Program-made: the position numbers and the translations under genes
From: Caldisericota bacterium
GTDB taxonomy: Bacteria > Caldisericota > JANLFM01
NCBI GenBank assembly: GCA_024655865.1
Contig: JANLFM010000006.1
Location: 16,183-80,182 of the forward strand
DNA length: 64,000 nucleotides
Direction of reading: 5' to 3'
Part shown: positions 32,751 through 35,713 of the stretch, one piece after another
Layout: each line of letters begins with the position of its first letter
Numbering within the stretch: position 1 is the first letter of the stretch
Notes under the pieces: generated by a model
Database searches by the model: none
What the model was told of the DNA's origin: nothing
Seen by the model: only the letters and a program-made list of their open reading frames with translations

Positions 32751-33857
32751 TTAAAAATTTAAAAATTTTCCGTTCTCGTAGATCACCTTTCCGTCCGCTT
32801 TCACCCTTGAGCCGTTCTTCATCTCCCGCACTATATCCCAGTGGATGGCTGACTCGTTCACTCCTCCAGATTCCGAATAGGAGTTCCCCAAAGCGAGATG
32901 CACGGTGCCCCCGATCTTTTCGTCGAAAAGGACGTTTTTGGTGCAGATCTGGATGCCGAAGTTCGTGCCGAAGGAGATTTCGCCGATCCTCCTGGCCCCG
33001 GGATCAATTTCCAAAGCGGCTTTTAGGCTCTCCTCTCCCTTTTCTGCAGAAAATTTCACCACTTCCCCGCGCTCGAACTCCAGGCGTATTCCCTCCACGG
33101 GCTTCCCGTAGAACTCGCTGGGGTATTCAAAGTAAATAAATCCCTCGGCGGAATCCTCAATTGGTCCCGTGAAGATCTCCCCGTCCGGCATATTGATTTT
33201 GCCGTCGCAGTTGATCCACTTTCTTCCTTTGACCTTCATCCTCAAGTCGAGATTGGGGCCCTCAAAGTGCAGCTCCTCCACCTGACCTAAGAACTCGGCC
33301 AAACGCTCCTGCTCCTCGTGCACTTTCTTCCAGTAGCCCACGGGATCATTTTCGTCGGGCATGCAGGCCTGGAACACGAACTCCTGATAATCGGAGAGGG
33401 ACATCCCGGCCTCCTGGGCCAGAGCATTCGTGGGGTAATCAAAGCCCACCCATTTGATGCCCCCTTCCTCCCTGGACTTCATGAACCTCTTCATAAGTGG
33501 TTCCAGAACCTTGCGCCTTCTTGCAATCCTTTTGGGATCAATGCCTGCAAGCTCCCTCAAATTTGCCGGGGCTCCGATCCCGATTTGGACGTCGAGGTGC
33601 TCTATTTCGAATTTTCTGATCTCCGAAACGAAATCCAGTTGCTCCAAAGTTGCGTAGCGGAAGAAGATCTCGTCCAGCCCGTCCAGTCCCAGGCGCAACA
33701 GGGGATGGCCTCCGTGGAGGAGAACCTCCCTGTAGATTGCGCGCACCAGGTCCGCGGCTTCAAGGGTAGAGTTAATGACCACAACCTCTCCTGGTTTTAC
33801 TTCTACGGAATAATCCACAAGTAATTGAGCCAACTTATCAATTCTGGGGTCGCTCAT
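32751..33857 (-). CDS. M29-family aminopeptidase (AmpS/PepS-like)
   Basis: Overall similarity to thermophilic aminopeptidase T/S, including 'ESGGVNESAIHWDIV'. It overlaps the upstream protease gene by 20 nt. Confidence 0.7.
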   Translation of the reverse strand: MSDPRIDKLAQLLVDYSVEVKPGEVVVINSTLEAADLVRAIYREVLLHGGHPLLRLGLDGLDEIFFRYATLEQLDFVSEIRKFEIEHLDVQIGIGAPANLRELAGIDPKRIARRRKVLEPLMKRFMKSREEGGIKWVGFDYPTNALAQEAGMSLSDYQEFVFQACMPDENDPVGYWKKVHEEQERLAEFLGQVEELHFEGPNLDLRMKVKGRKWINCDGKINMPDGEIFTGPIEDSAEGFIYFEYPSEFYGKPVEGIRLEFERGEVVKFSAEKGEESLKAALEIDPGARRIGEISFGTNFGIQICTKNVLFDEKIGGTVHLALGNSYSESGGVNESAIHWDIVREMKNGSRVKADGKVIYENGKFLNF

Positions 33858-34293
33858 TCTCTTCCTCTCTTTCTTGCACTTCTTTTATCAGGTTTTCCAG
33901 TATTTTAATTCCCTTTTCGGCAGAAGCCAGGGCTTCGGGTGAGAGACCCTCGCCAAAATCAAAATTGTACCCTCTTAGAGAAAGAAGAAAGGCTCGAGGT
34001 CGGCGATGATAGAGTTCCTCGAGCCAGAACAGGAATTGCTCCGGAAGGAGGTGGTGGGAAAGGAAGGAGGGCTTATTTTCCGGGAAAATTTCCCTCACCC
34101 GCACTTCCTCCCCTTCCAAAGCCGCATCTACGAATACGGCATAATCACAAAGCGCCAATTCCTCAAGGAGGTCTAAAGAAAGCTCCTGGAGGAACAACTT
34201 CTGGGCGGAAATTTCCGCTTTCTGGACGACATAATGGCCGATCCCGTCGTCCTGGCGATAAGGATTGCCGTAGGCGATTAAAAGGAGCCTAAT
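33838..34293 (-). CDS. Hydrogenase maturation endopeptidase (HoxW/FrhD-like), extended 5' of the track ORF
   Basis: The track ORF is 119 aa and starts at a TTG. The same frame is open 47 codons further upstream and encodes 'LLLIAYGNPYRQDDGIGHYVV', the conserved GxGNxxxxDDGxG metal-binding motif. No ATG, GTG or TTG lies in that stretch. The nearest plausible start is an ATT that overlaps the TAG stop of the large-subunit gene. Confidence 0.7.
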   Translation of the reverse strand: MRLLLIAYGNPYRQDDGIGHYVVQKAEISAQKLFLQELSLDLLEELALCDYAVFVDAALEGEEVRVREIFPENKPSFLSHHLLPEQFLFWLEELYHRRPRAFLLSLRGYNFDFGEGLSPEALASAEKGIKILENLIKEVQEREEENERPQN

Positions 34294-35713
34294 CTCTTTG
34301 AATCCTTTTTTCCAGTTTCCCCTCCTGGTTGTAGATTTCTACGATCAGGGGCATCTTCCCCACAGCATGAGTGGAGCAGGAGAGGCAGGGATCGTAACAG
34401 CGGATAGCTCCTTCCACGCGGTTGAGCATCCCTTCCTTGAGGTTTTTGCCGTCCACGAATCCCCTGGCCACGAGGTCCACAGCTTTGCTCATAGCCCAGT
34501 TGTTGTGCCCGGTAGCCACGATCAGGTTGGATTTCTTCATGGTCCCAGTTCCGTCCACCCAGTAATGGTGAATCAGGGTCCCCCGGGGTGCCTCGATCAC
34601 GCCGATCCCTTCCTCGTTTTTGGGGGTGCCGAAAGTGAAGACGTCCTGAGAAAGAATGTCGGGGTCTTTCAGGATCTCTATAGCACGCTCGGCGGCATAG
34701 AGGGTCTCAATCAAGCGCGCATAGTGGTAGTAAAGCGAGCTCTCCACGGGTTTTCCCCCGTTCACCTTTTTGAACTCCAGGAACTCCTTATGAGCCAGAG
34801 GAGTGGAGATGGAGTCCGCCACATTCAGGCGCCCCAGCGGTCCCACGCGGTAGAAACCCTCTTCCGGACCGAGCTCTTTGAAGAATGGGAACTTGAGGTA
34901 GGTCCAGTCTTCAACTTTCTCCCCGATGTATTTCAGGTAATCTTTGCCCTCGAACTCCCTGACGATCTTTCCCTCCTTATCCATGAAGCGCACAATGCCG
35001 TCATAGAGCTCTAAGGAACCGTCCTTTTTCACAAGCCCCATATACCCGGAGGGGAAGGAAGCAAATTGATTGCACTCCTCCTTGTGCTCGGAAATCCACT
35101 TTTTGGCGATCTCGATTCCCTCCTGAATGTACGGGATTCCCTCCTCCAGGAAAGAGAGCATCTCATCCCTGCGAGCTTCATCGAGGGCGGCGTTCACCCC
35201 TCCGGGAACGGCGAAGGTGGGGTGGATCCTTCTTCCCGCCGTAAGCTCAATGATTCTCTGCCCAAATTTGCGCAGCTTCACGGCCTTTAAGGCTATATCC
35301 GGGTTAGCCTGAATCAGCCCCACCACATTGCGCACGGCGGGGTCCGCATCCCACCCCAAAAGGAGGTCCGGGCCAGCCAGCTCAAAGAAGTGCATGGCGT
35401 GGGACTGGACAATCTGTCCCATGTGGACAAGCTCTCGCAGAAGTTTGGCCGGCCTGGGAATGTCCACGCCGATGACGGCGTCGCAGGCTTTGGCCGAGGC
35501 TAAATGGTGAGAGATGGGGCAGATGCCGCAGATGCGCTCGGTGATCATGGGCATCTCCGAGAAGGGCCTGCCCTCGGTGAATTTTTCATAACCGCGGTAC
35601 TGATCCACGTGGAAGTAGGTCTTTTCCACCTTTCCCTGATCGTCCAGGAAGATGGAAACCCTGGCGTGACCTTCAATTCTGGTAACTGGATTTATCGTAA
35701 TTTTTTCTCCCAT
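34289..35713 (-). CDS. Group-3 [NiFe] hydrogenase large subunit (HoxH/MvhA-like)
   Basis: N-terminal [13 protein letters not shown] (L1) and C-terminal DPCLSCSTH (L2). A 24-aa tail after the His is the protease substrate. Confidence 0.9.
   Translation of the reverse strand: [474 protein letters not shown]

Follow-up and report, generated by a model that had tools for sequence, protein, structure and literature searches.

In the hox operon of a Caldisericota bacterium, the gene hoxW, which lies directly downstream of the [NiFe] hydrogenase large-subunit gene hoxH, is very probably intact and functional, and its translation would start at an AUU codon. We have studied hoxW in a 64,000-nucleotide (nt) stretch of contig JANLFM010000006.1 (assembly GCA_024655865.1, forward-strand positions 16,183 to 80,182), which we call the window and whose own numbering we use here; all coordinates in the hox locus refer to the minus strand. 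The proposed initiation codon, at 34293..34291, overlaps the hoxH stop codon and appears to be served by a weak ribosome-binding site, an arrangement that suggests coupling to hoxH termination and a low protein output. Within one Caldisericota clade, the ATT arrangement is fixed.

The hoxH gene (34289..35713) encodes a [NiFe] hydrogenase large subunit of 474 amino acids (aa), and its 3′ end reads GAT TAG, with the stop codon at 34289..34291. The hoxW frame is in +1 relative to hoxH. It is closed by a TAG at 34341..34339 and open from 34338, and there is no ATG, GTG, or TTG between that TAG and codon 33 of hoxW, a TTG at 34195..34197 that is the first canonical start in frame. The open stretch translates as KSTTRRGNWKKGFKE-IRLLLIAYGNPYRQDDGIGHYVV..., and upstream of the TTG the frame reads ...KE-I-R-L-L-L-I-A-Y-G-N-P-Y-R-Q-D-D-G-I-G-H-Y-V-V. 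The initial annotation of this region had described a longest canonical open reading frame (ORF) of 119 aa without the metal-binding motif, a frame open for 47 more codons 5′ of its TTG, and an ATT embedded in GATTAGG that overlaps the hoxH stop. All of this holds. The ATG/GTG/TTG-initiated ORF runs over 33838..34197 from the TTG, its product misses both the first β strand (β1) and the GNxxxxDDG segment, and the ATT (34291..34293) shares exactly one base, 34291, with hoxH, its third base being the first base of the TAG.

Two elements of that description need revision. Besides the ATT described there, the stretch contains further initiator-like codons, and in all four in-frame ATH codons precede the TTG: ATT at codon 1, ATC at codons 6 and 18, and ATT at codon 28. 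Of these, the ATT at codon 1 alone precedes the conserved N-terminal strand. And the proposed span 33838-34338 is right about where the frame opens, while the gene proper, starting at the ATT, is 33838..34293, with 151 codons plus a TGA stop (33840..33838). When we scanned the window for genes with long start-less N-terminal extensions, no other was found, barring those due to a 4-nt overlap with the upstream gene.

Is the region upstream of the TTG translated at all? Codons 2-47 of hoxW, taken as the region 5′ of the TTG of the window, show pairwise ratios of nonsynonymous to synonymous substitution rates (dN/dS) of 0.06-0.18, with dS values going from 0.57 to saturation. This is purifying selection, and therefore the region is translated. 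The shorter interval of codons 2-20 behaves similarly (dN/dS 0.06-0.26), and residues 3-5 form a conserved hydrophobic group (L/I/V-L-L), in which residue 3 is only ever L, I, or V. The selection on codons 2-20 and the restriction at residue 3 imply that translation begins at codon 1 or codon 2. Since only codon 1 is of an initiator type, the start would be the ATT.

For the comparison inside the clade we used the window together with 13 further loci, taken from genome and metagenome collections and from assemblies of different projects, which make up seven lineages with a hoxW nucleotide identity of 63-84% between them, reaching as low as 63-68%. The comparison was made on fetched DNA; the close relatives found in protein databases are nearly all truncated gene calls. 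(For one of those proteins, P0001, an exact look-up did not find the encoding contig.) The ATT is at the identical position, in the identical frame, and with the same one-base overlap with the hoxH stop in all seven lineages. This is so even as the stop codon itself changes, being TAG in the window, L063, and L068, TAA in L001-L005, L008-L010, and L064-L066, and TGA in L006/L067 and L007. Codon 2 of hoxW varies along with the hoxH stop, and encodes R, K, E, or N. Ahead of β1 there is no canonical start in any of the seven lineages except in L005, where Leu5 is a TTG that the gene caller took as the start. In L001/L066, there is an in-frame stop only two codons upstream of the ATT, and thus in that lineage the start cannot lie any further upstream. 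The initial annotation had considered a sequencing error as an explanation for the missing canonical start. The invariance of the ATT, its frame, and its overlap in 13 further loci from independent assemblies refutes it.

The closest lineages outside this clade provide a complementary view. These are Caldisericota, Dictyoglomota, and unclassified metagenome-assembled genomes (MAGs) with 36-42% protein identity, and they have an ...AGAGAT/C-stop junction and a TTG start. L012, L015, L017, and L019 have the TTG in the neighboring frame, as part of a TTGA overlap. In another five (L011, L013, L016, L018, and L014), the TTG is found 4-6 codons upstream of the position aligned with the ATT, and in three of those five the last hoxH codon is GAC, so that the codon aligned with the ATT becomes ACT. 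An ACT is found only among the TTG-bearing sisters, which suggests, with the small numbers at hand, that the middle T can vary in lineages that have another start, and is held constant in those that have none. A small change of frame at the 5′ end could have moved initiation from a TTG onto an adjacent ATT. Further out, we looked at 52 outgroup loci belonging to many phyla. Measured from the position aligned with the ATT, their nearest canonical start is 0-2 codons upstream in 31 cases and 5-12 codons upstream in another 19. Since 31 of the 52 outgroup starts fall within 0-2 codons, the ATT coincides with the N-terminus that is most common in the family.

What protein would result from starting at the ATT? 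The product is, to judge from profile, structure, and residue comparisons, a divergent [NiFe]-hydrogenase maturation endopeptidase of the HybD/HycI/HoxW type, with a predicted catalytic function. The ATT-initiated protein matches the NCBIfam model TIGR00072 with 49.6 bits (E = 3.9e-13; curated cut-off 47.45 bits), such that its residues 4-134 cover model positions 1-143 of 145. An AlphaFold2 model of the 151-aa protein, with a predicted local distance difference test (pLDDT) of 85.3 and a predicted template modeling score (pTM) of 0.84, puts β1 at residues 3-8 and shows a C-terminal helix that is long and carries a charged tail (residues 119-147). The top Foldseek match for the model is HybD (1CFZ, E = 1.5e-6, template modeling score 0.67), followed by 5IJA, HycI (5ZBY), 5TTX, 2KML, and 2E85, while the sequence identity to solved structures is 20-24%. 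The profile and Foldseek matches agree with the initial annotation, which had called the gene a HoxW-like maturation protease.

The alignment to 5IJA, a Thermococcus endopeptidase, is informative about the N-terminus. Residues 1-137 of HoxW align to residues 1-148 of 5IJA, residue 1 on residue 1. With a Met placed at the ATT, the N-terminal alignment is MRVLILALGNELMKDDGAG against MRLLLIAYGNPYRQDDGIG (the 5IJA side also reading M/I-RLLLIAYGNPYRQDDGIG). In this register, D15-D16-G17 of the ATT-initiated product falls on the DDG of 5IJA. Alignment A1 shows three invariant residues, D16, D56, and H80; in alignment A3, the last two are again invariant and D16 is nearly so (at least 90%). We take them to correspond to the HybD metal ligands Glu16, Asp62, and His93. 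The codon for D16 lies upstream of the TTG, and only products initiated at the ATT or at the ATC of codon 6 include this residue; the 119-aa product from the TTG would have neither β1 nor this first putative ligand.

The substrate tells a consistent story. After the C-terminal DPCxxCxxH motif (DPCLSCSTH in the window), HoxH has a 25-residue extension in all lineages, always terminating in R-D; in the window its 25 codons occupy 34292..34366. In this family of hydrogenases, the large-subunit extension is removed by a maturation endopeptidase that cuts after the C-terminal His. As HoxH keeps its extension in all lineages, a protease is needed. The extension is the presumed substrate peptide of HoxW, and the same 25 codons contain the hoxW ribosome-binding region.

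That region includes a Shine-Dalgarno-like motif, AAGGA at 34303..34307, within the 3′ end of hoxH and 9 nt upstream of the ATT. In the seven lineages, the AGG at positions -13 to -11 from the ATT is invariant, and the A at -10 is present in six. The other hox genes of the window have GGAGG or AGGAGG 3-6 nt upstream of an ATG. The hoxW motif is weaker and more distant than those, and hence its initiation site, with a near-cognate codon and a weak Shine-Dalgarno-like motif at a long spacing, would be a comparatively weak one. We also considered the strong motif AGGAGGGG (34327..34320), likewise within the 3′ end of hoxH, as a ribosome-binding site. We rejected it because ~26 nt separate it from the ATT, because no initiator codon is close enough for it to serve, and because it is confined to the sublineage of the window and, in a weaker form, to L005. 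Taken together, the selection on the first codons, the in-frame stop in L001/L066, the AGGA, the end-to-end matches to TIGR00072 and to 5IJA, the modeled β1, and the TTG starts of the sister lineages support initiation at the ATT. The initial annotation had put this forward, together with a coupling to hoxH termination, as one of its two explanations; the coupling itself we consider probable.

There are three other ways of reading this junction. One is that translation starts at the ATC of codon 6 (34276..34278), giving a 146-aa product, MAYGNPYRQDDG... (MAYGN...). This is the start used in the GenBank proteins MCR4433105.1 and MDI6868915.1 (P0001 and P0019); ATC is a permitted initiator in translation table 11, and codon 6 is an ATC in six of the seven lineages. 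However, such a start would leave untranslated the region that codons 2-20 show to be under selection, along with the conserved hydrophobic residues 3-5, and it would cut off half of β1, whose residues 3-8 align to residues 3-8 of 5IJA. In addition, codon 6 is ATA in L001/L066, and no Shine-Dalgarno-like motif is found upstream of it. The conservation of the ATC is explained by the Ile it contributes to β1. We judge a start at codon 6 (34278..34276) to be very unlikely. Another reading, that of an error in sequencing or assembly or of a decaying pseudogene, would leave at most the 119-aa TTG fragment as a product. The IMG calls of 119 aa or shorter and the origin of the window in a MAG point in that direction. 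Against it, the arrangement is identical in 13 further loci from different projects, purifying selection is strong 5′ of the TTG, the GNxxxxDDG segment and the three putative metal-ligand positions are intact, a product of 119 aa would be deprived of β1 and of the first ligand, and HoxH still carries an extension that requires cleavage. The chances of this explanation being correct are close to nil.

A more intriguing reading is a programmed +1 frameshift at the end of hoxH (GAU-UAG) that would produce a HoxH-HoxW fusion. If true, the protease would be delivered in cis on the very peptide that it removes, and the fusion would be a self-releasing, stoichiometric maturation device in which the protease frees itself with a cut after the C-terminal His. 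The hoxW frame is indeed the +1 frame of hoxH, contiguous and with no spacer, and there is a Shine-Dalgarno-like motif upstream. It is also known, as in prfB, that +1 shifting is stimulated when a stop codon occupies the A site. But re-pairing in the +1 frame (AUU) is not possible for a GAU in the P site, and both the stop and the base next to it vary (TAGG, TAAG, TGAA, and TAAC). With 9 nt to the ATT and ~7 nt to the GAT, the AGGA is at a distance that fits initiation and not the 3-nt spacing of prfB. In L001, moreover, the shift would have to take place within just two codons. Finally, frameshifting does not predict that the ATT be lost in the TTG-bearing sisters, and a start-codon role for the ATT does. 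We regard the frameshift as highly improbable, and AUU initiation is the reading that we carry forward.

How strong is the conservation of the ATT by itself? The final codon of hoxH is GAT in all seven lineages, and GAT accounts for 31-69% of the Asp codons in these genes, such that the product of the fractions is 0.006. Several points weigh against giving this number, and AUU initiation in general, full credit. hoxH also constrains two bases of the ATT, as the A belongs to the codon of the conserved terminal Asp and the last T to the stop codon, and only the middle T, at the synonymous site of the Asp codon, is independently informative. The seven lineages are phylogenetically related, and not fully independent of each other. 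Thus, the evidence that the ATT is conserved as a start beyond the constraint of the overlapping coding sequence is supportive, not conclusive. On the protein side, the TIGR00072 score clears its cut-off by a narrow margin, and the 151-aa HoxW did not match any Pfam family at E ≤ 0.01. As for the broader interpretation, the coupling to hoxH, the low protease output, and the evolutionary direction from TTG to ATT are all parts that we infer.

Also on the negative side is the weakness of a candidate AU-rich hairpin that could enforce coupling, which RNAalifold proposes at the junction (34276..34294, GAUUAGG / CUCCU / UUUAAUC), and which would pair the ATT and the hoxH stop with codons 4-6. The 7-bp hairpin GAUUARG/UUUAAUC folds in six of the seven lineages with -2.4 to -5.0 kcal/mol at 37 °C; at 60 °C, its free energy is ~0 kcal/mol, that is, it is unstable. 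And even if 96% of the alignment cells are paired, compensatory changes are absent, and shuffled alignments score just as well. The Leu5 codon is the rare TTA (6-15% of Leu codons) in six of the seven lineages. A hairpin over the ATT and the hoxH stop is unproven, and AU-richness after the start codon explains the observations as well. An Rfam scan of 33700..34600 returned only eukaryotic matches at chance level.

If hoxW is initiated at the AUU, the following mechanism can be proposed. The AUU would presumably be read by the initiator tRNA as formylmethionine, as it is at other non-AUG starts, and the product would begin M-R-L-L-L-I-A-Y-G-N-P-Y-R-Q-D-D-G. Overlapping gene pairs can be coupled by termination-reinitiation (PMC6728339, PMC12548453), and ribosomes fresh from termination on hoxH may account for most hoxW translation. 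The synthesis of the protease would in this way be tied to the synthesis of its substrate, HoxH. In E. coli reporters, AUU initiates at ~1-2% of the level of AUG (10.1101/063800). A codon this weak would keep the protease at a small fraction of the HoxH output, which would fit a catalytic accessory factor.

A possible second case of a similar kind appears in a more distant genome. In a Coprothermobacterota MAG (JBBIUB010000013.1, locus L025:2440-2560), a hoxW homologue with 36% identity has no ATG, GTG, or TTG ahead of its GN...DDG segment. An in-frame ATA, placed 5 nt downstream of a strong AAGGAGG, overlaps there the TAA of hoxH as ATAA. The hoxH/hoxW junction of L025 may thereby have acquired a non-canonical AUH start of its own, independently of the Caldisericota one; when homologues of the L025 protein were sought to see if the ATA is conserved, none was closer than 45% identity. 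One could speculate from these two cases, the ATT-AR/GA of Caldisericota and the ATA-A of L025, that AUH starts overlapping the hoxH stop are a recurrent and selected means to achieve a low protease-to-substrate ratio, a generalization that we find rather doubtful. A different irregularity is found in a Thermodesulfobacteriota MAG (L057:240-390), in which an in-frame TAG separates a plausible ATG (MPYF*) from the conserved strand (ISSTSIWIIGYGN) of the hoxW homologue. In its relatives L030, L048, L055, and L058, an ATG or GTG ~8 codons upstream is intact. The L057 TAG could be due to a nonsense mutation, to an error in the assembly, or to the gene being a pseudogene.

The gene has already been annotated from the ATT, and also in several other ways. 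In the GenBank assembly GCA_049718385.1, a near-identical gene (L068) has a coding sequence at 601..1056 with the ATT at 601, and its protein, P0013, begins MRLLLIAYGN. In the cluster of proteins with at least 90% identity, we count at least four public starts for the same gene: the ATT in NCBI proteins of 151 aa (MGB9834465.1, MGB9875541.1), the ATC with 146 aa, the TTG in IMG with 119 aa, and shorter ones, with IMG calls of 106 and 126 aa. We judge neither the TTG nor the ATC to be the start, and only the 151-aa ATT model retains the first strand and the first metal ligand. On a separate matter, P0019 (MDI6868915.1) is 97% identical to the HoxW of the window and is labeled Coprothermobacterota, when the others are labeled Caldiserica/Caldisericota or simply "bacterium", which suggests that the MAGs are not consistent in their binning or taxonomy.

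The consequence for annotation is that pipelines limited to ATG, GTG, and TTG will report the Hox operon of this clade with a maturation protease that is truncated or missing. Literature searches on hoxW start codons and on Caldiserica hydrogenase proteases retrieved nothing relevant, either on non-canonical starts or on such a protease. hoxW is a further AUU-initiated gene, which belongs to a known class of starts and to a known protein family; what is new is the clade-wide conservation together with the informative arrangements in the sister lineages. It constitutes a well-supported, clade-wide addition to the rare conserved AUU starts. The hoxH/hoxW junction also offers a natural test case for how a near-cognate start and termination-reinitiation may set the ratio of a subunit to its accessory factor. 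Our understanding of hydrogenase maturation is unchanged by this finding, and its interest is modest.

Regarding the surroundings of the gene, hoxE-F-U-Y-H form an operon at 39981..34289, with products that match NuoE-like, NuoF-like, and NuoG-like proteins, a small subunit, and the [NiFe] large subunit. The large subunit, HoxH, matches Pfam NiFeSe_Hases with E = 7.9e-32, and its orthologues carry a precomputed PF27537 HoxH annotation; its best model is VhuA, at a score far under the VhuA cut-off. The protein in the HoxU position (36287-37939) has 550 aa with 2Fe-2S, 4Fe-4S, Molybdop_Fe4S4, and partial Molybdopterin matches, which makes it NuoG-like. Cyanobacterial HoxU is much shorter. On the other side, the 3′ end of hoxW overlaps by 20 nt (33838-33857) the ATG of an M29 aminopeptidase gene (32751..33857, also on the minus strand). 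The synteny of hoxW and the aminopeptidase gene is found in most relatives, with a 20-nt overlap in L001-L008, and with the two genes abutting without overlap in L009. Because the synteny is kept in most relatives, the hox operon and the aminopeptidase gene probably share a transcript.

It is useful to compare hoxW to the systems it resembles. With the HybD/HycI/HoxW endopeptidases (TIGR00072; 1CFZ, 5IJA, 5ZBY, 2E85), it shares the fold, the N-terminal register of M-R, a hydrophobic strand, and GN-x4-DDG, an acidic residue, an Asp, and a His at the metal-binding positions of HybD, and the location of the gene directly downstream of the large-subunit gene. It differs from them in being very divergent, to the point of lacking a Pfam match, in its long C-terminal helix with a charged tail, and in beginning at an ATT instead of an ATG, GTG, or TTG.

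As for the start codon, AUU starts in E. coli are established for infC and pcnB only (10.1101/063800). As in hoxW, the conserved AUU is in those two the only possible start of an ordinary conserved gene, and the weak codon presumably holds expression low, as we propose for hoxW. The AUU of infC, the gene for initiation factor 3 (IF3), underlies the autoregulation of IF3. Nothing points to autoregulation at hoxW. Unlike in the textbook arrangement of the two E. coli genes, the AUU of hoxW, a start predicted from the sequence, overlaps the stop of an upstream gene of the same operon.

Finally, hoxH and hoxW resemble the coupled ATGA and TGATG gene pairs, in that they are co-directional, act in one pathway, overlap stop with start, and have a Shine-Dalgarno-like motif inside the upstream gene. 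The same operon provides another overlapping pair, as hoxE and hoxF overlap by 4 nt with an ATG start, and at the hoxH/hoxW junction itself, a TTGA overlap is present in the Dictyoglomota relatives. The hoxH/hoxW overlap of the Caldisericota clade differs from the ATGA and TGATG pairs in its form, ATT-AG/AA/GA, in which the start is located 2 nt before the stop, the two genes overlap by 1 nt, and the start codon is a non-canonical one.

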